Shown here: piece by piece, positions 1,311-28,100 of the stretch
Layout: each line of letters opens with the position of its first letter
How positions within the stretch are numbered: position 1 is the first letter of the stretch
Source: a virus
Direction: 5' to 3' (one strand)
Virus record (IMG/VR): IMGVR_UViG_3300005529_000024
Location: 32,001-96,000 of that record
DNA length: 64,000 nucleotides
Program-made: the position numbers and the translations under genes
Notes under the pieces: generated by a model
Databases searched by the model: none
Told to the model about the DNA's origin: nothing
Seen by the model: only the letters and a program-made list of their open reading frames with translations

Positions 1311-1640
1311 ATGAAACTGATAGACCTTGAGCCTAGATTATTTCGTTTAGCGGATATAAATGGAGACTCTGCGTCTTTAGAAAGGGTAGACAGTTTAGCT
1401 GAAGCTCAAGGCATTAGATTTGTTTGTCCAAAATGCTTCGTTAGTAATAATGGTCCTATAGGCACTCATTATATCATATGTCTTTTTAGAGATAAAGGCA
1501 TCCCAAATAATATAATGCAAACCATAGCTAGATGGTTTGTATCCGGTAAAGATTTTTCTGATCTAACTCTAACACCATCCATACTTCTTCCTGATAATTG
1601 CATGTGGCATGGTTTTATAACTAATGGTATGATTTTATGA
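1311..1640 (+). CDS. DUF6527-like small Cys/His protein
   Basis: CPKC..H..W..SG...LTLTPSI....C.WHGFITNG pattern. Confidence 0.5.
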   Translation: MKLIDLEPRLFRLADINGDSASLERVDSLAEAQGIRFVCPKCFVSNNGPIGTHYIICLFRDKGIPNNIMQTIARWFVSGKDFSDLTLTPSILLPDNCMWHGFITNGMIL

Positions 1641-2572
1641 GCAATATACTATACGTGGACCAAGAGGAGCGCGTATCAAAGATAACTCCTGGAAGTGAAG
1701 AGGCTTCACCTCCTGCGCTTATCTCTCCAGAGGGTGATACTATATTTATCGATTATCATGTAATGCATGATGAAGCATTGTACGCACTTGGATTTAGATA
1801 CGGTATCGATGAGGCAATCAAGAAACATAAATGGGTTCGTGTTGTATCGTTTGATGAATTTCAACTCCCTGAATTAACTGTAAAGTATCTTGGTCTAGTC
1901 GATGACTTCATCAGCACCTATGGCTACATGAATTCTGATAAGCTCATAATCGATTTCTACGCTGGTGTTAAACTATATACTATTGAGATCTCTAAAGATG
2001 ATTATGACGATAGAGGATTGATTGGTGCTGTTAGAAATGAACTACGTCACCATGAACAGAATGCGCTTCTTGCTAGATGCCCCAAACCTATAATCACTTC
2101 TATCATGAAGTCAATGGGTATGGAGAGTGGGAAAGCTGTTAAAGAAGCTGTAGAGAAATTGTTTGAGCGAGAGAAAATTCTTCCTACGCATTTCTCTATC
2201 CTTTCTGCTCAGAAGGGTCTTTTACATGATGAGGAAGCACATAAGTCTTTGTTGCGTACTCTAACTAATTCTGGCTTTAAAAATATTATTCCTGTCGATG
2301 GGCATTATGGGAATCCGGAGAAATCAGTTATAGTTGTTCATACAGGTTCTGCTGCAAATAAAAAGAAGCTTGAGAATATCGCTCTTAATATTTTCGATCA
2401 AGAATCTATTATACATTCTGATGATTTAAAAAATGTTCTTGTGTATAATGATGGACAGAAACTTTCAGGTGCTGGTATAGAGATAGACGATACATTTAGC
2501 GATTTCTATACCGTCTTACCAAATGGTATTAAATTTAGATTAGGTATTAATCATTTTTCACATGTCGGATAA
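1637..2572 (+). CDS. Two-domain protein: GW-P-G-like domain plus SAM-lyase/DUF3293-like domain
   Basis: C-terminal FSILSA...GHYGNPEKS...FDQESII, preceded by AVKEAVEKLFE tag. Confidence 0.55.
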   Translation: MSNILYVDQEERVSKITPGSEEASPPALISPEGDTIFIDYHVMHDEALYALGFRYGIDEAIKKHKWVRVVSFDEFQLPELTVKYLGLVDDFISTYGYMNSDKLIIDFYAGVKLYTIEISKDDYDDRGLIGAVRNELRHHEQNALLARCPKPIITSIMKSMGMESGKAVKEAVEKLFEREKILPTHFSILSAQKGLLHDEEAHKSLLRTLTNSGFKNIIPVDGHYGNPEKSVIVVHTGSAANKKKLENIALNIFDQESIIHSDDLKNVLVYNDGQKLSGAGIEIDDTFSDFYTVLPNGIKFRLGINHFSHVG

Positions 2573-2573
2573 A

Positions 2574-3248
2574 ATGGATATTAAAAGCTATATAGATAAG
2601 TTGTTTGAATCTGGTGATATCTTTTTAGCTGAAAAATTAGTTCTGAAGGATTATAAAGATTTTTCAAAGCTAGTCGCACAAGCTTACTTAGCTAGACCTG
2701 ATTACGAATCTCAGTATGCATCTTCCTGGAAAGCTTTAATCCCGTTCATTGAAAAGATGTTTAATCAGATCTCTTCGAAGGTTGATGTTGAATTTACAGA
2801 TGCTGATCCCTACAAATCCTCGAAAGCATTACGAAGGGATATCGAGCAGAACAGTAGGCTAAAAGTTTGGACTGGCGCATCTAATCATCCGATTTTTACT
2901 GAAGAACAAAACTGGAAGTTCCGAGCGATCCATGATTATATGACACATGCTACTGGTAAGCATCCTTTCTCGCTTAGGGGAGAAATTGGTGCATACAATA
3001 GACATGTAAAGACTATTCCTGTCGAAGGAAGACTTGCATTATTCACAGAGGTAATCGGTCAGGTATCTACATATTTCGAGACTTCATCGCATCCACCACA
3101 GAAGATTTGCAAGCTCTGGGGTTTTGATTACGTAAACGTTGGAAACGTGGATGAAGAAGAATATAAGAAGAACTTCCCAGATCAAGAAGATAAACCAGTT
3201 CCTGATGAAGATAAAATAACTACTGATGATCAAGAAGGTAATGTATGA
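2574..3248 (+). CDS. Zincin-like (HDxxxH) protein with putative capsid-targeting N-terminus
   Basis: MDIKSYIDKLFES; FRAIHDYMTH...RGE..AY..H...LFTE..GQ. Confidence 0.55.
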   Translation: MDIKSYIDKLFESGDIFLAEKLVLKDYKDFSKLVAQAYLARPDYESQYASSWKALIPFIEKMFNQISSKVDVEFTDADPYKSSKALRRDIEQNSRLKVWTGASNHPIFTEEQNWKFRAIHDYMTHATGKHPFSLRGEIGAYNRHVKTIPVEGRLALFTEVIGQVSTYFETSSHPPQKICKLWGFDYVNVGNVDEEEYKKNFPDQEDKPVPDEDKITTDDQEGNV

Positions 3249-3673
3249 GATACGGTTGGCTTAATCCTAAAGGAGAATTTCTTTCTCTTGAAGGAAGTAC
3301 ACATGATAAGTTCATCCAGAAACATGGTTTCAGTGATCCTAGACCTGAACAGGCAGTTCGTGATGCGATTAATGCTGGTTGGGTTCGAATGCATGCTAGC
3401 GATTTAAACAAAGAGCTTAGCTTTCAATTTAATGGATCGGATGAATCTTACAGGCACATAGGATATTTCATCAGCGATCATCCTGAGACTAGTAATTATC
3501 TTATCGCGCTTGATTCTCCAGATGGCTTTGTTAATGAATTGGACCCTGAAGATATTATAAAGTATGGCGCTAAACGTGCAGCTAAGCGTATATTAGTTGG
3601 TGCAGGTTTTGGTGCTAACTATGGCGAAAGCAAGACAGTAAAAAATTACGTTGACAATTTATTTACGGATTAG
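3245..3673 (+). CDS. GW-x-x-P-x-G / GW-x-R domain protein with C-terminal tag-like motif
   Basis: YGWLNPKGEF..H..AINAGWVR; ends TVKNYVDNLFTD. Confidence 0.55.
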   Translation: MRYGWLNPKGEFLSLEGSTHDKFIQKHGFSDPRPEQAVRDAINAGWVRMHASDLNKELSFQFNGSDESYRHIGYFISDHPETSNYLIALDSPDGFVNELDPEDIIKYGAKRAAKRILVGAGFGANYGESKTVKNYVDNLFTD

Positions 3674-5980: not shown

Positions 5981-6490
5981 ATGCCACCACCTAAAGATCC
6001 TAATAGATATAAAGAATATTGTGAAAAATTTATGGGAAATACTAATGGATCTTTTGGTGCTGGTATCCAGAAACCATCTCTTATAGGTAACAAAAACGCA
6101 TCTGGGCATAAAGGTGAAAAACATTGGAAATGGAATCCGACAATACCTACAAACGTTAGATGGAGTAGAGCGGCACAACATTTTTGGAAACGTACTGGAA
6201 TAATTATTACCGAAGAAATGTATAACGAACGTTGTAAATATAACTCTAATTGTTGTGAAATTTGCGGTCTTCCTGAAAGTCAAAATATAATAAATGGAAA
6301 GAATATAGCATTGAGTTTTGATCATGACTATATAGCTAAGCGTTGGAGAGGACTTCTTTGTTCTTTCTGTAATCAACATAGACTTCCTTTTTATGAAAGA
6401 CGAAGTAGGCAGTTTAAGAAAGATATTACTATAGAAGAATATCTTGATGAAACTAATTGGCCTCTTCCATATCAGACAAATGCAATATAA
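5981..6490 (+). CDS. Endonuclease VII-family (HNH-like) homing-type endonuclease
   Basis: CEICG..LSFDHD...RGLLCSFCN; N-terminal GEKHWKW NUMOD-like motif. Confidence 0.85.
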   Translation: MPPPKDPNRYKEYCEKFMGNTNGSFGAGIQKPSLIGNKNASGHKGEKHWKWNPTIPTNVRWSRAAQHFWKRTGIIITEEMYNERCKYNSNCCEICGLPESQNIINGKNIALSFDHDYIAKRWRGLLCSFCNQHRLPFYERRSRQFKKDITIEEYLDETNWPLPYQTNAI

Positions 6491-7361: not shown

Positions 7362-8024
7362 ATGTTAAAAGAATATATTGATAGTATGTTCGAAAGAGAT
7401 GAAGAAGATAGCACATACGAAAAGCTTTGTCCTAAATGTGATTCACCTATGGAGTTACTTCATCCTGATTATTGGACATGTATGCGCTGTGATGCTACAG
7501 TTCCTCATAAGGAAGTTGATGAGGCTGAGCCTAAGAATCGTGCAACCAGGACTGGATGGAGAGAACCTGAAGGAGATGATGAGGATGATTTTGATCTGAA
7601 GGTTCTTCATCGTGGTTACAATCCTGATCGTCTTACTCTTTCTATAAGTGGTAAGCCATATACTTTCTATGCTGAGCCGGAAGTCATTGAGAGATTCCAT
7701 AAGATCTTTAATCTCGGATCGAAGGGTCAAGCTCTTGCTTATTTGAAAGATAACGATATGAAGGATCGTATCATTGTCATGGAGTTTGATAAAGACATTG
7801 ATGCTGGAACAGCACAGTCTCTTCTGGATACTCTTGCTGATAAGCACCTTATTCCAAGTGTGGATTTCAGCACAAAGACAGCTTCAGCAATCATCTACTA
7901 TGCAGATCCAATTGATTTAACCCATTATAACCTAATCCGCAATAGTGTAAAGCTTGAAGGATTTACTGCTGAAGACGTTACTAAACCTAAAGCTAAGTTC
8001 TTTATGATGAAGGTTCATAAATAA
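7362..8024 (+). CDS. Zn-ribbon multi-module protein with putative capsid-targeting N-terminus
   Basis: MLKEYIDSMFE; CPKC..CMRC. Confidence 0.55.
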   Translation: MLKEYIDSMFERDEEDSTYEKLCPKCDSPMELLHPDYWTCMRCDATVPHKEVDEAEPKNRATRTGWREPEGDDEDDFDLKVLHRGYNPDRLTLSISGKPYTFYAEPEVIERFHKIFNLGSKGQALAYLKDNDMKDRIIVMEFDKDIDAGTAQSLLDTLADKHLIPSVDFSTKTASAIIYYADPIDLTHYNLIRNSVKLEGFTAEDVTKPKAKFFMMKVHK

Positions 8025-8446
8025 TGAACAAGGATTATTACTCAATACTCGGTGTACAGCCTGGTGCTTCTACCGATGAAATCAAAAAGGCGTATCATAA
8101 GAAAGCTCGTGAGCTTCATCCTGATTTAAATCCATCTGCTCCATTAACCAGGATTCAAGAAGTGAATGAGGCTTATGATGTATTAAGCAGCAAGCGACGT
8201 TCCATTTATGATCATGAACGTAAGCCAGCTACGCAACAAGATTATCCGAGTAATGGTTTTGATCCTAGTCTTTATGTGGACAAGTGGCATAAAGAATCCA
8301 AGTATTATAAGACTCACATTACTAAAGAGCAACCGAATTGGATGAAAGCAGAGGAAGAGCGTCTAGCAAAAGAATTTGCGAAGAAGGAAGATATCCGATC
8401 ATCCATTGGTAACATTTTTAAGAAGACTAAACCTAAAGGTAAATAA
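8024..8446 (+). CDS. DnaJ (J-domain) protein
   Basis: DYYSILGV..EIKKAY..LHPDLN..VNEAYDVLS. Confidence 0.92.
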   Translation: MNKDYYSILGVQPGASTDEIKKAYHKKARELHPDLNPSAPLTRIQEVNEAYDVLSSKRRSIYDHERKPATQQDYPSNGFDPSLYVDKWHKESKYYKTHITKEQPNWMKAEEERLAKEFAKKEDIRSSIGNIFKKTKPKGK

Positions 8447-9196
8447 ATGAGCATAAAAGACACTGTTGAAAAGATGTTTGAATCAGGCGATCTTAGAGAG
8501 GATAATATTTTCGATCTGCCTGAAGGGAATTTTACTTTAACATTCGATACTAATAAGCTCTTAGAGCTATTTGATTTACCAAAGGTTGATGATCTTGAAG
8601 CGATTACCATAGACTATTGGCCTAGTGATAGTGATCTATTAAATACAAGTAAACTTGATGTGTCCCAAGACGACGATGGTAATTTTATTGATGCTGATGA
8701 GAATCCTTTACCAGAAGAAGTGATCGATGATATAAAAAGAGCTATAATGGATGCTGTGTATTCTGGTACTATGGGACGTTATCATAAGCGCATTATATCT
8801 ACGCTTGAAGAATCATTATCTACATTTCAAGATTATAAATACGAGTATTTCCCTCTGACGGATGATGGCGAGAGAACAGCTACTGGTGTTGCTAAAGGTA
8901 TTCTAAATTTTGAAGTCTCGTTTGATGAAACCAAGATTGAATGCGCTCCGGATATTGTTCACATCATAAACGATTGCATTAATGGGGTTGGTGAGTTTTA
9001 TGCGACTGATGATCTTGAAGGTGATTCTGTCGAAGAGTTTGCTAAGTCTCGTTTTCACTGGTTGAACAGATATTGGGATATCTATGGTGGTGGAAAGCCA
9101 CAAGTAGATACTGACAATATCGATGATTTCGATTCTGAATATTTCAGGACCTTATTAAAAGAGATCGAAACAGAACATAATGTCAAGCTAACCTAG
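8447..9196 (+). CDS. Highly acidic protein with putative capsid-targeting N-terminus
   Basis: MSIKDTVEKMFES; D/E-rich. Confidence 0.6.
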   Translation: MSIKDTVEKMFESGDLREDNIFDLPEGNFTLTFDTNKLLELFDLPKVDDLEAITIDYWPSDSDLLNTSKLDVSQDDDGNFIDADENPLPEEVIDDIKRAIMDAVYSGTMGRYHKRIISTLEESLSTFQDYKYEYFPLTDDGERTATGVAKGILNFEVSFDETKIECAPDIVHIINDCINGVGEFYATDDLEGDSVEEFAKSRFHWLNRYWDIYGGGKPQVDTDNIDDFDSEYFRTLLKEIETEHNVKLT

Positions 9197-9255: not shown

Positions 9256-10890
9256 ATGTTATCACAAGAACAACTTCGCATGAGACAGCTTGCTCGTACT
9301 TATGGATACAACTATCCTAATCTGATTGAGCAGGACAGTCTGAACACAAACCCAGAAGGTGGTCAGTATATTAAACTTTCCGAGCTTTCTGTCAATGATC
9401 AGTTTAGAATTGCTTCAAGCTGGAAAGCGGATTTCAATACTGCTCTTTCTATCGCTGCTACGCAATTGCTCTCTTTTGGTGGATTGAAACAGCCAATGCT
9501 CGTTCGGGCAAAAGATAATGGTAACATTACTGTTGCGACTGCCACTGGTAGCGAGCACGTAATCGCTATGAGTGAAGCAGATGTAATCTTCGTTCTTCCT
9601 CTTACCTCACGTCCTGCAAAAGATGGTGGAGTTAAAGATTCGTCTATTGACTCTATGGACTGGAACGTTCTTCCAAGTGGGGAAAAGCCTGTTAGTGCCA
9701 AGGGTGGACAGAAGATCTTCGATAGTAAGTCTGGTAAGGCTAATTTAACTGAAGATGCTAACCTTACTCCTGGTGCTGTTTTCAAGCTTCCTGGAAAAGA
9801 TGACGAATACTCTCTTGTCTCTTCTGACGATAAAGAGGTTACATTCCGTGGTAAGGACGGTAGTAAGTATCGGCTTCCTAAAGATAAGTTTCAAGCTACT
9901 CCTGTAAAGGAATCAAAAGGACGAAGAATTTCTCGCCTTGCTGAGATCCATGCTGGAGATGTGTTTAAATTTGTTGAGCCTTTTGCTGAGGGAGTTGACA
10001 TCAACAAAGTCTATCTTAAAGTTGAATCTAAGAATGGACGTAACGTTGCATATGTTTCTCCTCAAGGTAATCTAGATACTGTCCCTCTTCGTTATTCGAA
10101 GCACATTAAAGTTGAGAAGATCAACGATGAACTTTCAATGGAAGAGAGAAAAGATTTTAGTACACTGAGACAGCTTCATTCTGGCGATCAGTTCTGGTTC
10201 TTATCAAAAGACCGGGAATTCACTGAGACTCCTTATACTGTTCAGGAAAATGATTTTGTACAACAGCATATCCGTGTTCAGAGTCCAACCGATTCTCTTA
10301 AAGAAAATCGTTCTTGGTTTAGGGTGAATCATGATCATGCAGGGAACATTCTTGTTATCCGGAAGAGTCAGGTTACTGAGAAAGTAAAGGATGACAGCAA
10401 TTACGTTCTACTTCGTGATCGTAAGAATCTTTATGAGCAGGATGAACAGCAATATTTCCCATTGTCAGATCTAGCTGTAAACGATACCTTTAAGGTCAAG
10501 ACGGCTACTGCATCGAATTATCAGCCTATGTCAATGCCTACTATGCAGTTCTTGACATATGGATCATCAAAGATGCTGTATCTTGTTAAGGCTAAGTCTG
10601 GCGCTGGTATTACTGTTGCGACTGCTAATATGGGCGATATTACTATCCCTATGGCTGATGCACAGCGTATCAAGGTCATGGTCTTTACTCAGAGACCTGT
10701 TGCCACAGATGGTGTTAAAGATCCATCTATTACTCAGATGAAGTGGGATGTAGGGCCAAAGGCTGAAGCTCCTCATACTGATTGGAATGCTCATCCAGAA
10801 GAGAATCAAAATAAAGAAATCTCTGGTAAAGATCCATTCGATACGGGCGCTGAAGGATCTAACTTTCCAAAGGGTGGAAAGATCGACTAA
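9256..10890 (+). CDS. Multi-repeat protein with duplicated terminal domains and small beta-barrel-like modules
   Basis: LSELSVNDQF...ITVAT...GVKDSSI..M.W.V recurs as LSDLAVNDTF...ITVAT...GVKDPSI..M.W.V; L..L..GD.F modules in between. Confidence 0.6.
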   Translation: MLSQEQLRMRQLARTYGYNYPNLIEQDSLNTNPEGGQYIKLSELSVNDQFRIASSWKADFNTALSIAATQLLSFGGLKQPMLVRAKDNGNITVATATGSEHVIAMSEADVIFVLPLTSRPAKDGGVKDSSIDSMDWNVLPSGEKPVSAKGGQKIFDSKSGKANLTEDANLTPGAVFKLPGKDDEYSLVSSDDKEVTFRGKDGSKYRLPKDKFQATPVKESKGRRISRLAEIHAGDVFKFVEPFAEGVDINKVYLKVESKNGRNVAYVSPQGNLDTVPLRYSKHIKVEKINDELSMEERKDFSTLRQLHSGDQFWFLSKDREFTETPYTVQENDFVQQHIRVQSPTDSLKENRSWFRVNHDHAGNILVIRKSQVTEKVKDDSNYVLLRDRKNLYEQDEQQYFPLSDLAVNDTFKVKTATASNYQPMSMPTMQFLTYGSSKMLYLVKAKSGAGITVATANMGDITIPMADAQRIKVMVFTQRPVATDGVKDPSITQMKWDVGPKAEAPHTDWNAHPEENQNKEISGKDPFDTGAEGSNFPKGGKID

Positions 10891-10899
10891 GGAATCAAA

Positions 10900-11319
10900 A
10901 TGGAGCCGAAAAAACTAAGTGACGTTGAGCTTGCTAAAGCTATTCGTTTAGACATAGAGGCAGAGCTTGATGCTATCAATCTTTATGAATCTCATCTTGA
11001 ATCGACAGATAATCCAGAGGCTAAAAAAGTTCTTGAGCATGTAATCAAGGAAGAGAAAGATCATGTCTCTCTCTTCCTTGAATTACTCAAAACTCTAGAT
11101 CCAGAGCAAGAGGATATTCTAATGAAGAGTAAAGAATATTTTGGCTCTACTGTTAAAGAGATGATAGAAAGATCTTTCGATGAGGATATAAAGACTCGAA
11201 AAGTAAAACTCAAAAAGAATCTTTCGCATAATGAGGCTTTACGTTCTGTTCCAAAAAGTGTCGGTGATTTTAGAGGTTTCAAATATGATCCGGATACTGG
11301 TATAGCTTATTGTACGTAA
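10900..11319 (+). CDS. Ferritin-like (encapsulin-cargo Flp/rubrerythrin-type) protein with C-terminal extension
   Basis: AIRLDIEAELDAINLYESH...LEHVIKEEKDH..FLELLKTLDPEQ. Confidence 0.85.
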   Translation: MEPKKLSDVELAKAIRLDIEAELDAINLYESHLESTDNPEAKKVLEHVIKEEKDHVSLFLELLKTLDPEQEDILMKSKEYFGSTVKEMIERSFDEDIKTRKVKLKKNLSHNEALRSVPKSVGDFRGFKYDPDTGIAYCT

Positions 11320-11335
11320 CTAAAGGGAATACAAA

Positions 11336-11590
11336 ATGGATATAAAGAAAGTCGTTGACGGCATATTAGAGACGCATTATGGTGATCTTGACCGAGGCGA
11401 AGCTGCTAGGGAGGCTAAAGCTCGTTTCACTGAAGCTGTATCTGATATGCTGAATAAGTTGGAAGAAATTCAGGATGATCTCAAAACAGCTTGGAGCAAG
11501 GCTCATTATGAGGAAACTCGGTTAGCTACGTATAAGCTACGTGACGCTATTGTGTTGATAAAAGAATTACGTGAATCATTTTGGGAATAA
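11336..11590 (+). CDS. Helical protein with putative capsid-targeting N-terminus
   Basis: MDIKKVVDGILET. Confidence 0.6.
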   Translation: MDIKKVVDGILETHYGDLDRGEAAREAKARFTEAVSDMLNKLEEIQDDLKTAWSKAHYEETRLATYKLRDAIVLIKELRESFWE

Positions 11591-13694: not shown

Positions 13695-14159
13695 ATGACT
13701 ATACCTTATGATCCCCTCGTTGAGGCTGGAGATTATGGGTTTCTTGCTAAGGTTACTTCTGAGTTATATCGTAGGCGCATGATACCTGTTCAGTATATAC
13801 GCTTAGACCGCAATCAATCTGTAGATACTCTATATAACGAGAAGAAAAATCCTGTCTTTCTTCCACCAATATCTATCAATGCCTTTATCAGTCGTCCGGA
13901 TGATTCCCAGGAACTTCTTCGTTATGGTCTTGATCGTGATGTGGCAAGAAAGTTGTACATACCTAGATATGACACTGATCAAGTAAATCTGACTCCAGAG
14001 ATAGGAGATAAGATACAGATTCTTGGTACAGAAGGTGAAACCGATGAGCTTGAAGTCATGGTGGTAAACAAAGAACAGTTTTTCTTTGTGAACATCAATA
14101 AGATCTTATCATGGGAACTCGTATGTCGTTACTACAGGATTAGGAACCAGAATGGATAA
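13695..14159 (+). CDS. Neck/head-closure protein (T4 gp14-like)
   Basis: VQY..L....DTLYNE....F...I.AF......L.RYGL......PEIGD pattern. Confidence 0.55.
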   Translation: MTIPYDPLVEAGDYGFLAKVTSELYRRRMIPVQYIRLDRNQSVDTLYNEKKNPVFLPPISINAFISRPDDSQELLRYGLDRDVARKLYIPRYDTDQVNLTPEIGDKIQILGTEGETDELEVMVVNKEQFFFVNINKILSWELVCRYYRIRNQNG

Positions 14160-14874
14160 TGACGAATTTCTATTGCACAATTGGTTTAATTCAGAGCTAA
14201 GCAAGTCTGGGACTGAAGAGCTTACAGATGCTGCTGTATCATCTAGTGCAGATATGGCTGATCTTCAGAGCAGGTATAGTTCGTTGTTTACTTCAGTTCT
14301 TGAACCTCTTGCTACCGCATTAAGAAACAGTGTAAGCGCGGCTATAAAAGATTGTCCTAATGTTGATTCTGTACGAACACGAGCAAAGGGTATTCCTAGT
14401 TTCATTTTAAAAGCTTCCAAGCTTTATAATACAGCGAATGAGACATTCCCTAAATACGATGATCCCTTGAATGAGATCCAAGATCAACTCGGTGCTCTTG
14501 TTCTTGTGCGATATACAAACAATGTAGACTGCGTTGTTGAGACAATTAAATCTCACTTTAAGGCTGTCGAAGATAAGCTCATTGTTCCTGATGAACCAAA
14601 TGAATTTGGTTATGAGGGTCATCACATTGTATTACTTCTGCCGGATGCACTATTAGAGCCTTATAAAGATAATAAGGATTGTCCCAAGTTTTTCGAGCTA
14701 CAGATCAAAACTCTGTATCAATATGCATGGTCGGAAGCTGGTCACAACATTGCTTACAAGGGTCACAATCTTACGGAAGAACAAAAGAAGACGATTGCAT
14801 TCTTGGCTTCGATGACATGGGGTAGCGACAAAATCTTTTCTGATCTCGCAAGAACATTCGGAGAACTACAGTGA
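14152..14874 (+). CDS. RelA/SpoT-family small alarmone synthetase-like protein
   Basis: RAK..SF..K, IQDQLG, FGYEGHH, FELQIKTLYQYAWSEAGHNIAYK. Confidence 0.9.
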   Translation: MDNDEFLLHNWFNSELSKSGTEELTDAAVSSSADMADLQSRYSSLFTSVLEPLATALRNSVSAAIKDCPNVDSVRTRAKGIPSFILKASKLYNTANETFPKYDDPLNEIQDQLGALVLVRYTNNVDCVVETIKSHFKAVEDKLIVPDEPNEFGYEGHHIVLLLPDALLEPYKDNKDCPKFFELQIKTLYQYAWSEAGHNIAYKGHNLTEEQKKTIAFLASMTWGSDKIFSDLARTFGELQ

Positions 14875-20618: not shown

Positions 20619-22052
20619 ATGTATCTAAAAGAAAATTTATTGGAAGTACTGCCATTCCATTATGAATTGGTGGAAGATAAAAGTACTTCAGGTAAGCCTA
20701 CTAAGAAGGTAGTGGGCACATTCCAAGTTGCTGAAGTGAAAAATGCGAATGGTCGTATCTATCCCAAGAAGTTATGGGAGAGAGTAATCAACGATCCTGG
20801 TGTTCAGCAAAAAATTAAGAACAGAGAGCTTTATGGTGAGTTGGATCATCCGGATGATGGTCAAACCAAACTAAAGAGAGTTTCGCATGTCATCACCGAA
20901 CTACGTATGGATGGAAATCAGATTATCGGTGTAGCTGAGATTCTTCCTACTCCTCACGGACAAATTTTGAGTGGCTTGTTTGATGCCAAGACAAGTCCCG
21001 GTATTTCATCTCGTGGTAAGGGGTCAGTACGTAACGAAGCAGCAGGCTCAGTAGTTTGCGATGATTATGATTTTATGACATTCGATTTTGTGTCCGGACC
21101 ATCGGCTCCCGGTGCATATCCTAAACCAATGAATGAAAATTCGAATAGTGGTATTTTTGGAGGTAATATAAAAATGAGTTTGGCAGATCTTAAAGTAATC
21201 AAAGAGAATGTAGAGTTATCTGTGAAATCTCTTGCTAGCTTACAGGGTCCGGATCGTGAACGTCTATTCTCTAAGCTTACTGAAGCTGAAGTTGAGATCA
21301 ATAAGATTGTTCAGACTGAACCTGCTCTAGCTGATTTCGGTCAAGAGATCAAGGATCTAATCAAGAAAGCTAAGACTGAGAATGTTAACGAAGTTTCAGA
21401 CAAGGAAAAGCTTGCTGCTGCTATCGTGATTATCGAAAAAGCGAAAGAGAATCTTAAGAGTCTACAAGAGAGCTACGCTAAGGACATCGAAGCTTCTCAG
21501 AAGATTGTCAAGGAACTTGTAGAAAAACTCGCTTCTCTTCAAGAAGAAGCTAAGAAAAATAAATTCGAAGAGAAATATGAAACCGTTTGTGAGCTTGGTG
21601 ATGAGCTTGCTAAACGTGCAGATAAGTTTCGGCGTAAATATGAAGCTGCTTGCAAAATTGGCGATGAGCTTCTAGAACGCGCAAAGGATTACTCCATTAA
21701 ATATGAAGCTGCTTGCAAGATCGGTGAAACTCTCTTAGATGAACGCAACAAATTACAGGAAGAGAAAGACGCGCATCTGACCCTCATTAATGAGATGGTC
21801 AAGAAGTCGAAAGCTGGTAAGAAAGCAGAACCTAAGAAAGAAGAAAAGAAGGAAGAAAAGAAAGAGAGCATTCAGGATAGGAAAGATGCTCAACAGAAGA
21901 ATCTCACAGAGAAAGCTGCTCTTCCTGGAGACGCTAAAGCAAAGTTAGATGAATCAAAGGGTAAAAAGGCTGCGGATAAACCTGCTGCTAAGGCCCCAAA
22001 AGTATCTGCTCCTTCGTTTTTCAAGAAAGCGATGGGTAGAGTCGGTAAATAA
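20619..22052 (+). CDS. Prohead protease (T4 gp21-like) fused to coiled-coil scaffolding protein
   Basis: NANGRIYP, GELDHP, GISSRGKGS, FDFVSGPS..GA; long K/E coiled coil C-terminus. Confidence 0.93.
   Translation: MYLKENLLEVLPFHYELVEDKSTSGKPTKKVVGTFQVAEVKNANGRIYPKKLWERVINDPGVQQKIKNRELYGELDHPDDGQTKLKRVSHVITELRMDGNQIIGVAEILPTPHGQILSGLFDAKTSPGISSRGKGSVRNEAAGSVVCDDYDFMTFDFVSGPSAPGAYPKPMNENSNSGIFGGNIKMSLADLKVIKENVELSVKSLASLQGPDRERLFSKLTEAEVEINKIVQTEPALADFGQEIKDLIKKAKTENVNEVSDKEKLAAAIVIIEKAKENLKSLQESYAKDIEASQKIVKELVEKLASLQEEAKKNKFEEKYETVCELGDELAKRADKFRRKYEAACKIGDELLERAKDYSIKYEAACKIGETLLDERNKLQEEKDAHLTLINEMVKKSKAGKKAEPKKEEKKEEKKESIQDRKDAQQKNLTEKAALPGDAKAKLDESKGKKAADKPAAKAPKVSAPSFFKKAMGRVGK
21174..22052 (+). 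CDS. Probable nested in-frame scaffolding protein
   Basis: GGAGG at 21159-21163, 10 nt before the in-frame ATG at the domain boundary. Confidence 0.6.
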   Translation: MSLADLKVIKENVELSVKSLASLQGPDRERLFSKLTEAEVEINKIVQTEPALADFGQEIKDLIKKAKTENVNEVSDKEKLAAAIVIIEKAKENLKSLQESYAKDIEASQKIVKELVEKLASLQEEAKKNKFEEKYETVCELGDELAKRADKFRRKYEAACKIGDELLERAKDYSIKYEAACKIGETLLDERNKLQEEKDAHLTLINEMVKKSKAGKKAEPKKEEKKEEKKESIQDRKDAQQKNLTEKAALPGDAKAKLDESKGKKAADKPAAKAPKVSAPSFFKKAMGRVGK

Positions 22053-22140: not shown

Positions 22141-23517
22141 ATGTCAGGTAAATTTCTAAATGAAGAATTAGAGAACCATGCTACTCGGCTTCTCGAAGAA
22201 AAGTGGGGAGAGTATCTTGATGGTATCGATAGTGATGTAAAGAAAGCATTCACCGCTATTCTTTTGGAGAACACTGATAAAGCTCTAAAGAGAATGGATG
22301 AAAGCACTCGTACAGTTAACGTTGGTACTTTCACAAAATATATTTTCCCTGTTGTTCGTGCAGTTGTACCCAATCTTATCGCACAGGATATCGTTAGTGT
22401 TCAGCCTATGACTGGACCTACTTCTCAGATCTTCTATTTCGATATTCTCTACGGGACTTCAAAGGGTCAAGTCTCTGCTGGACAGAAACTATTTGATGCT
22501 CAGTCCGGTCCATCCATGATCGGTAATACATACTCTTCAGAGCGTGTTGATACCGAAACGGATGTTCCCTCTCCAGCATTTGATGGTGTCGCCACTGGTC
22601 CATTCACCTTCACGCTTTCGTTCCGTCCTGTTGTTCCTCGCACTATCGTTATCACTGTCGGTAGCGTTGTTGGTCAGGATGATGGTAATGGTCATATCGT
22701 CGGGACTGGTATCTCAGCAGGTACTATTAACTACAGCACTGGACTTGTTTCTCTCACATTCACTTCTGCTCCATCTGCTCCTACAACTGTTCTTGCTTCT
22801 TATACTTATGCAGTTGAATCGGTTGATGTTCCAGAACTCGATATTCTCTTAAGTTCTCTACCAGTTACTGCTCAGAAGCGTAGACTTCGTGCTCGTTGGT
22901 CACTCGAAGCTGCACAGGACCTTATGGCCTTGTTCGGAATCGATGCTGACGTAGAAGTAACCGCTGCAATGGCAGAAGCAATCAAAGCTGAAATTGATCG
23001 GGAAGTTATTGCTGATCTTTTTGCAATTGCTCCTTCTGGTGCCGGAACAATTCCTACTTTCCACACTACTCCTGGATCTGGAATTTCTTATACTGAGTGG
23101 AAACTTCAGTTCATCGATAGTCTCGTTTACGGAAGCAACGCAATCTTCAAGGCAACCAAACGTGCTGTCGGTAACTTCGTCATCGCCGGTGTTGATGTTT
23201 CTAGCATCATCGAAACACTCCCTGGTTTCGTACCAGTTCCTGGTGCTCTTAATCAGGTCGGTGTTGTTAAAATCGGAACTTTGAATGCTCGTTGGGATAT
23301 CTTCAAAGATCCATATATCACCAGCACGAACTATCTCGTTGGTCACAAGGGTTCAACCTTCCTTGATACTGGATATGTTTATGCTCCGTATATTCCACTT
23401 TACACTACGCCTACTGTAGTCTTGGATGATTTCCTTGGCCGCAAGGGTGTAGGAACGCAATATGCCAAGAAAATCGTGAACTCTCGATTCTATGCTTCTG
23501 GAAATATTGCTCCTTAA
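22141..23517 (+). CDS. Major capsid protein (T4 gp23-like)
   Basis: PNLIAQDIVSVQPMTGPT, VTAQKRRLRARWSLEAAQDL, AEIDREVI, GYVYAPYIPL. Confidence 0.96.
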   Translation: MSGKFLNEELENHATRLLEEKWGEYLDGIDSDVKKAFTAILLENTDKALKRMDESTRTVNVGTFTKYIFPVVRAVVPNLIAQDIVSVQPMTGPTSQIFYFDILYGTSKGQVSAGQKLFDAQSGPSMIGNTYSSERVDTETDVPSPAFDGVATGPFTFTLSFRPVVPRTIVITVGSVVGQDDGNGHIVGTGISAGTINYSTGLVSLTFTSAPSAPTTVLASYTYAVESVDVPELDILLSSLPVTAQKRRLRARWSLEAAQDLMALFGIDADVEVTAAMAEAIKAEIDREVIADLFAIAPSGAGTIPTFHTTPGSGISYTEWKLQFIDSLVYGSNAIFKATKRAVGNFVIAGVDVSSIIETLPGFVPVPGALNQVGVVKIGTLNARWDIFKDPYITSTNYLVGHKGSTFLDTGYVYAPYIPLYTTPTVVLDDFLGRKGVGTQYAKKIVNSRFYASGNIAP

Positions 23518-26549: not shown

Positions 26550-28100
26550 ATGTCAGTTTTCTTAAGTCCAGGAGTTTATACTCGTGAGGTTGATCTCAGT
26601 CTATTCGCTCCAGCACTGTCAAGTACTATCTTGGGTCTTGTTGGCGTCTTCACAAGTGGACCTATAAATACACCTACATTTATCTCTGATCTTGATGGTT
26701 TTATCAATACCTTCGGAAAGCCAAAAGCCGGTACATTTGGTGCTCTCGCTGCAATCCAATATCTTCGCTATGGTCGTCAGCTTCAGGTTGTTCGTGTTGG
26801 TGCTTCGTCTTCTCTTGCCTTCGCTACAGTAAACATCAATGATGTGAATCCTATCCCTGCTCCTCGTATTACAGTGAATGGATTGTACAAGGGATCATCT
26901 TATAATGGCTGGCAAGCGATTATCTCCAATGCTTCTGGTTCAACATTTACCCTTGCTGTTGTTGATCCCTCTGGCATTCAGAGAGAAATCTATAACGGCC
27001 TAACAATTGTATCATCTGATCCGAATTATTTTGTTACACGGATTAACAACATCAGCAGCTATATCACTGTCGCTGATCTGAACTCATCTGGTACATATTT
27101 GCCTGCCACTGGTACATTTACTCTTATCAATGGTAATGATGGAGTAACTGGACTCGTTGCTTCAGATATAACTGGTACTGCTGGATCTGGTAATGGACTT
27201 GATGCATTCTCAAATCAGGAAACTATCAGCATAAATATGCTAGCTGCTCCTGATTATACTCTTCTTGCTGCTTCTCAATGGCAAGGTGTTATTAACGATA
27301 TGCTCTCACTCTGTAGTGGTAGAGGAGACGCTATCGCTATTATCGATCCTCCTCCTGGAGCAACAGCACAGCAAGTTGTATCTTGGCATAATGGTATCGG
27401 CGTTACAATCGGCACGAATGTTTTCCCATCTGGTGCTTCATTCAATTCCAGTTATGGTGCTTTGTATTGGCCTTGGGTTGAGATCTTCGATCCATTTAAC
27501 AACGTCAACGTATTTGTTCCTCCTTCAGGGTTTGTTGCAGCTACTTATGCAAACAATGACTTTCTTGCTGATCCTTGGTTTGCTCCTGCTGGAACGAATC
27601 GTGGGCATCTTATCGAGGCACTTGCAATTGAGAGATCCCCATCGCAAGGAGATCGTGACTTTATTTACAGTGGTGGCAATGCTGTAAACCCTATTGTGAA
27701 CTTCATTCCTGAAGGTATCACTATCTATGGTCAGCGTACATTGCAGCGTACTCCTACTGCTCTTGATAGGGTGAACGTTCGGCGTATGTTGCTTTACGCA
27801 CGGAAACTTATTGCTATCGTAGCTCGTAGTATCGTATTTGAACCAAATGATCCTAAGATGTGGAGATCGTTCACACGGCTTGCTAACAATATCCTGGATG
27901 GAATTAAAGCAGCACGTGGTATCACAGACTTCAAAGTAATCATGGACGCTACCACGAACACTCCGGACTTAATCTCTCAGAATATTGCTAAGGCTAAGCT
28001 TTTGATTATCCCTACGCAAGCTGCTGAAATTATCGAGGTTGATTTTACGGTCTTGGCTGCTGGTACAAACTTCGAAGAGATCGTTGGATCAAACGGTTAA
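26550..28100 (+). CDS. Tail sheath protein
   Basis: FLSPGVYTREVD, YWPW, PWFAPAG.NRG, GQRTL..ALDRVNVRR, FEPND. Confidence 0.96.
   Translation: MSVFLSPGVYTREVDLSLFAPALSSTILGLVGVFTSGPINTPTFISDLDGFINTFGKPKAGTFGALAAIQYLRYGRQLQVVRVGASSSLAFATVNINDVNPIPAPRITVNGLYKGSSYNGWQAIISNASGSTFTLAVVDPSGIQREIYNGLTIVSSDPNYFVTRINNISSYITVADLNSSGTYLPATGTFTLINGNDGVTGLVASDITGTAGSGNGLDAFSNQETISINMLAAPDYTLLAASQWQGVINDMLSLCSGRGDAIAIIDPPPGATAQQVVSWHNGIGVTIGTNVFPSGASFNSSYGALYWPWVEIFDPFNNVNVFVPPSGFVAATYANNDFLADPWFAPAGTNRGHLIEALAIERSPSQGDRDFIYSGGNAVNPIVNFIPEGITIYGQRTLQRTPTALDRVNVRRMLLYARKLIAIVARSIVFEPNDPKMWRSFTRLANNILDGIKAARGITDFKVIMDATTNTPDLISQNIAKAKLLIIPTQAAEIIEVDFTVLAAGTNFEEIVGSNG

Follow-up and report, generated by a model that had tools for sequence, protein, structure and literature searches.

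The DNA analysed here (the window) is a stretch of 64,000 nucleotides that corresponds to bases 32001-96000 of the 174,395-base IMG/VR virus record IMGVR_UViG_3300005529_000024, estimated to be 82% complete. It encodes a 139-aa protein, P0001, that belongs to a solid phage branch of the EncFtn half-ferritins in which the termini have been swapped. An EncFtn domain akin to encapsulin cargo has no encapsulin-loading peptide and is joined instead to a small phage module, and the gene lies close to the head genes of a T4-like phage. Encapsulins and the capsids of tailed phages have the HK97 fold in common. The reading that such a protein is loaded into the phage capsid is attractive, yet it is unproven.

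The P0001 gene occupies positions 10900..11319 (+) of the window, and the whole ORF is accounted for by the EncFtn domain and the fused phage module, as judged from the sequence, Pfam, PDB and AF2. The ATG follows, 6 nt further on, a Shine-Dalgarno sequence AAGGA (10889..10893, +), which shares bases with the stop codon of the 544-aa ORF before it. The neighbours are tightly packed, the 544-aa ORF ending at 10890 and an 84-aa ORF beginning at 11336. A chance origin of the ORF is ruled out by its family matches.

Residues 1-81 (10900..11142, +) are a bona fide EncFtn half-ferritin, composed of helices 8-35 and 39-66 and the start of a third helix (Pfam, PDB and AF2/Foldseek). Residues 11-74 match the Pfam family EncFtn-like (PF22277) with 37.5 bits against a cut-off of 27, and with 38.6 bits in the genome scan. 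The best sequence match in PDB is Myxococcus xanthus EncC (7S8T, E 2e-23), followed by the EncFtn domain of P. furiosus, EncB and R. rubrum Rru_A0973. The AF2 model, built from a 45-row alignment, has a mean pLDDT of 87.9 and reaches 94-98 over residues 1-70. Foldseek searches with this model placed only EncFtn structures at the top, namely EncC, P. furiosus EncFtn, EncB and Rru_A0973, all with a probability of 1.00 and with TM scores by target of 0.70-0.90; over about 77-79 positions aligned by Foldseek, EncC is 53% identical to P0001. The di-iron residues E22 (10963-10965), Y29 (10984-10986), E52 (11053-11055) and H55 (11062-11064; all +) occupy invariant columns in the alignment of relatives (A1), and their spacing of 7, 30 and 3 is that of Glu32, Tyr39, Glu62 and His65 in the ferroxidase centre of R. 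rubrum EncFtn (PMC5012862). The earlier note, made from the letters alone, had recognised a half-ferritin in the N-terminal ~72 residues; the Pfam score above cut-off, the EncC match, the fold and the metal residues bear this out over about 80 residues.

A grouping with rubrerythrins unrelated to encapsulins, which the same note had named as evidence against its reading, is not what was found. Both sequence and tree place P0001 with true encapsulin cargo, namely EncC and relatives bearing TVGSL peptides. An exhaustive profile search gave 862 homologues at E<=1e-3, and in 24 of the 233 sequences retrieved the C-terminal pattern [TS][VI]G[SD][LM] is present. The TVGSL motif is known to target proteins to encapsulins (PMC8346489), and many of the nearest cellular relatives end in a loading peptide of this kind (LTVGSLKA, FTVGSLRG, LTVGSLKRR and others). 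P0001 contains no TVGSL- or LGIGSL-type peptide anywhere in its sequence, in agreement with the earlier note, which had seen none of the LGIGxL type. A tree of the domain unites P0001 in one group (SH-aLRT 92) with nine metagenomic sequences with which it shares the signature HVI[KQ]EEK[DE]H, a label that is partly circular because the signature falls within the aligned columns. A loading peptide is absent from all ten, and the 19 rows of the tree that bear one are all on the other side. The five other members that were looked up (P0002, P0004, P0009, P0090 and P0093) are all encoded on phage-like contigs, P0093 and P0004 among genes for replication or nucleotide metabolism and not among head genes.

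The record gives no sign of an encapsulin partner, for which the earlier note had suggested that the rest of the genome be checked: a search of the 174-kb record for the encapsulin family Linocin_M18 (PF04454) found nothing at E<=1, although this absence is not absolute because the record is estimated to be 82% complete. The sole shell protein found in the record is of the phage type. P0001 shares with M. xanthus EncC and EncB (7S8T, 7S5C), cargo of EncA, the two-helix half-ferritin layout and the E/Y/E/H residues, with 53% identity to EncC, and differs from them in having no encapsulin partner in its record. EncC-like cellular relatives are cell-encoded and end in an LTVGSL-type peptide, whereas P0001 is phage-encoded and has a phage module at its C-terminus. 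R. rubrum EncFtn (Rru_A0973, 5DA5) has the same residue spacing and the same Pfam family, to which P0001 scores above cut-off, but it is only 20-24% identical to P0001 and its gene adjoins that of its encapsulin. Its decamer and ferroxidase activity have been measured, whereas P0001 is known from its sequence and a predicted structure.

The C-terminal part of P0001 is a phage module of about 40 residues, here called module X. Its core, residues 97-139 (11188..11316, +), was delimited by homology and AF2 and comprises a helix of basic character, KTRKVKLKKNLSHNEALR, and a beta-hairpin in which the motif GDFRGFKYDPDTGIA is conserved. P0001 is colinear here with a whole 61-aa stand-alone protein from a different viral contig (L013:3944-4126), residues 84-136 pairing with its residues 3-58 (45% identity, blastp E 1e-14). 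Since this colinearity extends over the entire stand-alone protein, including its leader, the alignment identifies P0001 as a gene fusion, in which the EncFtn core (to F81) is followed by a Gly-Ser junction and then, in frame, by a small phage gene that is complete from its third codon onwards. The module recurs as a 55-aa stand-alone protein (L015:3968-4132, E 2e-12), as a 60-aa protein encoded next to terminase genes in a phage of high G+C content (L012:5944-6123) and as the C-terminus of a 255-aa protein in a 336-kb T4-like phage (L016:3356-4123). Identities to the stand-alone 55-61-aa proteins and to the C-terminus of the 255-aa protein are 45-53%, and the consensus reads L[ST]xxEA[LM][KR]xxP...GD[CF]RGF[SK]YDxxTGIA. 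Module X is an unannotated domain that occurs alone or fused at the C-terminus, and it adjoins terminase genes in two phages. It belongs to no Pfam or PHROG family, it was absent from a word search for short proteins among 5.8 billion proteins and from a tblastn search of 50,697 cultured phage records, and its Atlas matches were at noise level only (TM<=0.51). In the AF2 model, a single continuous helix (68-114) runs out from the ferritin hairpin through the junction and is followed by a small beta-hairpin with strands 127-130 and 135-138.

A stretch in this module resembles a loading peptide. KSVGDFRGF (119-127) was considered as a relic of one, by comparison with the RSVGSLKG and TVGDMRD tails of relatives, and was rejected: SVGDFRG is part of the conserved motif GD[CF]RGF[SK]YD, the core of module X, which is common to proteins that have no ferritin domain. 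As a separate observation, a GAGGA sequence (window 11113-11124) stands 7 nt before the in-frame codon of Met75, from which a 65-aa product without the ferritin, made of the leader-like segment and module X, could in principle be translated.

The phage that carries P0001 is T4-like. It encodes a Gp23-type major capsid protein of the HK97 fold (22141..23517, +; Pfam PF07068, 210 bits), which is the shell protein referred to above, and a T4 gp21-type prohead protease, Peptidase_S77 (20619..22052, +; Pfam 91 bits; phrog_207); ORF 26550-28100 encodes a tail sheath. Neither a search with the 544-aa upstream gene nor DNA similarity yielded close relatives of this phage. At least 16 of its ORFs begin with a leader of 12-14 residues resembling the T4 capsid targeting sequence (CTS), of the types MSIKDTVEKMFE and MDTKKIVDQLLE, and all 16 precede the head genes, between window positions -4267 and 16755. 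With an HMM made from the 16 N-terminal peptides, these score 9.5-22.6 bits, and no other site in the genome exceeds 6.2 bits. A cruder scan with a position-weight matrix found 13-14 sites over thresholds at which shuffled proteins yield 0.0-0.1; at the upper threshold the shuffled proteins gave none. The family of leaders that the earlier note had called the phage tag is in this respect well founded. It includes the 84-aa gene immediately downstream of P0001 (11336..11590, +; leader MDIKKVVDGILE) and a 249-aa ORF two genes upstream (8447..9196, +; leader MSIKDTVEKMFE), both identified in the leader scans. The T4 CTS has 10 residues, and gp21 cuts after L/I-x-E (PMC9026906). The 16 leaders end in hydrophobic-x-Glu/Asp, and the S77 protease of this phage would be the enzyme expected to cut them after L/I-x-E.

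The P0001 gene is located inside this block of leader-bearing genes, which spans about 20 kb; a portal candidate, the S77 protease and the Gp23 gene follow just downstream. About half of the genes in the block are untagged. Among these are genes for a DnaJ J-domain protein (window 8024-8446, +; 70.8 bits), a RelA/SpoT-type small alarmone synthetase-like protein (window 14152-14874, +; 37.3 bits) and a protein with an endonuclease VII domain (window 5981-6490, +; 27.2 bits). The presence of untagged genes, some of plainly cytoplasmic types, makes position alone a weak proof of packaging. The T4 late-promoter motif TATAAATA, tried for the timing of the block, occurred at 11 sites against 5.9 expected, none of them informative.

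P0001 itself has no leader at its N-terminus (MEPKKLSD). Its leader-like segment is internal, at residues 84-96 (TVKEMIERSFDED; 11149..11187, +), and aligns with residues 3-15 of the 61-aa protein L013:3944-4126. Against the HMM of the phage's own leaders the segment STVKEMIERSFDE scored -1.2 bits (i-E about 140), and in the position-weight matrix it remained at less than 8 bits, which is not significant. It fits 9 of 11 position sets, as do 27 other untrained sites in the proteome, and the chance of such a fit in a 139-aa protein is p about 0.03-0.07. Candidate protease motifs are MIE (88-90), which matches L/I-x-E only if Met is allowed, as in the MFE leaders of this phage, and FDE (93-95), which has Phe at -3; at the usual cut site, position -3 of the segment is not hydrophobic. 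The function of the T4 CTS has been demonstrated for N-terminal peptides only (PMC9026906). The link of the segment to the leader family is drawn through homology, since it corresponds to the N-terminus of the L013 protein, which in turn resembles a leader found on four genes of another T4-like contig. The idea of the earlier note that the cargo peptide had been replaced by the phage head tag therefore stands for the loss of the peptide, while the tag is internal and diverged, with a negative HMM score and a fit near chance level. Its order of parts, a tag followed by a small domain, is recovered as a segment derived by homology from a leader and then module X, although the segment is not significant against the phage's leader profile. 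Taken alone, the P0001 tag is not secure.

Relatives in other phage contigs lend the head-loading idea genuine support. The residues of the L013 protein homologous to the internal segment are its N-terminus, MITVNEIVASLLSED, and on this alignment the segment is derived from an N-terminal peptide. The L013 peptide is nearly identical to the leader MITANEVLNLLSEN of P0149, an 89-aa half-ferritin that is 51% identical to P0001 (Pfam EncFtn 19 bits, below cut-off). P0149 is encoded on a T4-like contig of 30% G+C (L030), on which a Gp23 capsid gene is followed by three genes and then by P0149. The pattern [EK][VLFI][LV]xL[ILV][NS]E has exactly four sites in the six frames of this contig, in every case within a called gene, at its residues 6-13; the genes are P0149, its two flanking genes and the next one downstream, consecutive at L030:3544-7051. 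All four leaders end in [LIV]-[NS]-E, an ending that in sequence is the gp21 motif. The N-terminus of P0001, MEPKKLSDVEL, aligns with P0149 just past the leader and a spacer, and for this reason P0001 looks like a copy from which the N-terminal leader was lost and which gained a leader-bearing partner by fusion.

P0002 (L005-7), 69% identical to P0001, starts with KLVEELGSLLKE, and its motif LVEEL[KG]SL recurs within 2.4 kb in three neighbours, near the N-terminus in two of them and near the C-terminus in the other. A weak similarity (E 2e-4) links window ORF 13695 to the gene downstream of P0002. P0183 is 57% identical to P0001 and begins with MNKARKIIEALSES; a Peptidase_S77 gene lies 8.5 kb downstream of it, a distance close to that between P0001 and its own protease. 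In G001, the phage with the stand-alone module, of which 95 kb were covered, the leader HMM of the window gave nothing significant, and only two N-termini are alike by eye. P0090 (L010) consists of EncFtn and a 190-aa helical tail and is encoded three genes after a portal gene. For the 391-aa gene that follows it, the idea of an HK97 capsid protein found no backing: the gene has no PHROG, no homologues and no useful Atlas lead, and single-sequence AF2 gave an unusable model with a pLDDT of 35. The claim for P0090 is accordingly limited to its position three genes after the portal. A further recurring peptide, LA..LD..G....AD.[IV]D..L, is seen at the C-terminus of two phage EncFtn proteins, P0003 and P0004, and is also found at the N-terminus of a neighbouring gene (L002:9699-9917, -) and in a 232-aa gene just upstream of the L010 EncFtn fusion (L010:5893-6588); perhaps it is a further motif for addressing or interaction.

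A working model of entry into the prohead was drawn up because the P0001 gene lies in the leader block near the head genes and because its relatives bear canonical leaders beside capsid genes. In the model, the EncFtn-type di-iron protein, which descends from EncC-like encapsulin cargo, has lost its C-terminal TVGSL loading peptide and is fused to module X, would enter the prohead core and become one of the internal proteins of the head; we give the model as a whole an even chance. In EncFtn proteins each di-iron ferroxidase site is made by two chains, five dimers form a ring and a shell is needed to retain the mineral (PMC5012862, PMC8346489). By analogy, two copies of the P0001 half-ferritin would pair with the ferroxidase site at their interface (E22, E52 and H55, with Y29 nearby), and the protein would form a ring decamer that oxidises Fe2+ and stores no mineral of its own. 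In T4-like phages the leader would carry the EncFtn protein into the prohead core; P0001 would enter perhaps by means of its internal leader or of module X. The S77 protease may then cut near E90 (MIE) or E95 (FDE), which would free the basic module X and leave an 11-kDa ferritin and a 5-kDa basic peptide. Virion packaging of P0001 is plausible but unproven, and for this particular copy we put the chance at even or slightly below. Protection of the packaged DNA, delivery to the next host or a structural ring may be its purpose; for iron sequestration or relief from Fenton damage within the phage head, as imagined by the earlier note, we rely on pure inference.

The main rival to packaging is a cytoplasmic antioxidant or iron-handling role, which we consider the less probable explanation but one to be taken seriously. 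P0001 would then be a phage ferroxidase that never enters the virion and either lowers free Fe2+ and Fenton damage or redirects host iron, and the tag-like segment would be nothing more than a stretch of the fused module. Such a role agrees with the lack of an N-terminal leader and the chance-level score of the internal segment, and also with the DnaJ, RelA/SpoT and endonuclease VII genes in the same block, the RNR, endonuclease and sigma-factor surroundings of P0093 and P0004, and the interpretation of other phage ferritin-superfamily genes as stress-tolerance genes (PMC8008677, PMC6669764). However, without a shell, on which it normally depends, EncFtn is unable to keep oxidised iron in solution (PMC8346489), and close homologues in T4-like phages bear canonical leaders beside head genes. 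These two points count against the cytoplasmic role.

Two further explanations assign P0001 other tasks. The EncFtn ring could be a ten-fold (D5) hub that displays ten basic copies of module X, for example to DNA, the prohead core or a vertex; its iron chemistry would then be of minor importance or gone. This we regard as improbable, although EncFtn is fused to many unrelated phage partners (P0090, P0091, P0093, P0094 and a 948-aa protein of phage LE2-3), module X genes adjoin terminase genes in two phages and the long helix 68-114 is predicted by AF2 to project from the ferritin hairpin. Strict conservation of the four metal-site residues throughout the phage group argues that metal is still bound; metal binding itself drives EncFtn oligomerisation (PMC5012862), so that the two roles are not exclusive. 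Alternatively, an EncFtn without a loading peptide could co-oligomerise with a host EncFtn, bar it from its shell and free iron for the phage. The 53% identity to a bona fide cargo, EncC, and the loss of the peptide fit such interference, but the phage group is old and spread across phages of very different G+C (30-48%); we think this the least credible of the explanations, with very little in its favour.

Known systems offer partial parallels to a ferritin addressed to the phage head. The T4 internal proteins IPI, IPII, IPIII and Alt, which carry the CTS, are matched here by the T4-type protease and capsid protein and by the hydrophobic-x-E-type leaders on at least 16 neighbouring ORFs, but the leader of P0001 is only internal and diverged, and no T4 internal protein is a ferritin. 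In the P. furiosus Flp-fusion encapsulin (2E0Z, 5N5E; E 1.6e-10 and 2e-11) an EncFtn domain is likewise tied to an HK97-fold shell. There, however, the ferritin is fused to the shell protein, whereas P0001 is a separate protein in a genome-packaging virus. The Dps-like proteins and Mn-catalases of 'Gratiaviridae' and Lactobacillus myoviruses are also phage-encoded members of the ferritin superfamily, interpreted as oxidative-stress helpers; they differ in belonging to other ferritin families (24-mer or 12-mer cages, or catalases), in not being derived from encapsulin cargo and in having no link to a head-targeting leader.

In a full-text literature search that combined EncFtn, encapsulated ferritin and rubrerythrin with phage terms, no description of phage EncFtn proteins was found, and the literature searched on phage ferritin-superfamily genes concerned Dps-like proteins and Mn-catalases only. 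A 2026 paper speculates that procapsids might co-assemble virus-encoded cargo-related proteins and do biochemistry (PMC13669383). P0001 and its relatives are concrete phage-encoded homologues of encapsulin cargo without the encapsulin address, and at least two of the relatives carry the phage's own head-addressing leader, one of them near the capsid gene. On a broader scale, T4-like and other tailed phages may have captured encapsulin ferroxidase cargo and exchanged its loading peptide for their own capsid-targeting leader, so that the head loads an EncFtn ring; we advance this tentatively, as somewhat short of an even chance. If the packaging is true, address peptides would be swappable between two kinds of HK97 shell, and phage internal proteins would gain a new enzyme class with a bearing on the protection of DNA from iron-driven damage. 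If the exchange of addresses is true, it would provide a virus capsid with an internal iron-oxidising enzyme, for protection of the DNA in the particle or delivery along with it, and a present-day case of cargo passing between encapsulins and HK97-fold viruses. Without packaging, these proteins would still be a previously undescribed phage branch of the well-studied EncFtn family.

Among the 50,697 cultured phage records, the sole EncFtn match is gene LE23_74 of Eggerthella phage LE2-3 (L029, MW679026.1 51172-54018), and this phage is a usable experimental handle. Its product, a 948-aa 'ferritin-like superfamily protein', has an EncFtn-type domain at residues ~203-276 with 41% identity and intact metal residues. 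An 'antirestriction protein' gene lies on one side, and the major capsid protein gene is four genes on; by its sequence and setting the 948-aa protein is a candidate large internal virion protein.

Two other ORFs of the window contain leader-like peptides outside the N-terminus. In a 311-aa ORF (window 1637-2572, +) the internal peptide AVKEAVEKLFERE at residues 167-179 scores 6.1 bits and is followed by a weak match to S-adenosylmethionine lyase (Pfam 23 bits, below the cut-off of 28). On these matches, the ORF is a second case in this phage of a domain, an internal leader and a cargo in that order, and possibly a packaged anti-restriction enzyme. In a 142-aa ORF (window 3245-3673, +) the peptide TVKNYVDNLFTD, at 6.2 bits, is placed at the extreme C-terminus, and four bases separate it from the following gene, whose product begins with a canonical leader. 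DNA that encodes leaders may serve as a recombination joint between gene cassettes.
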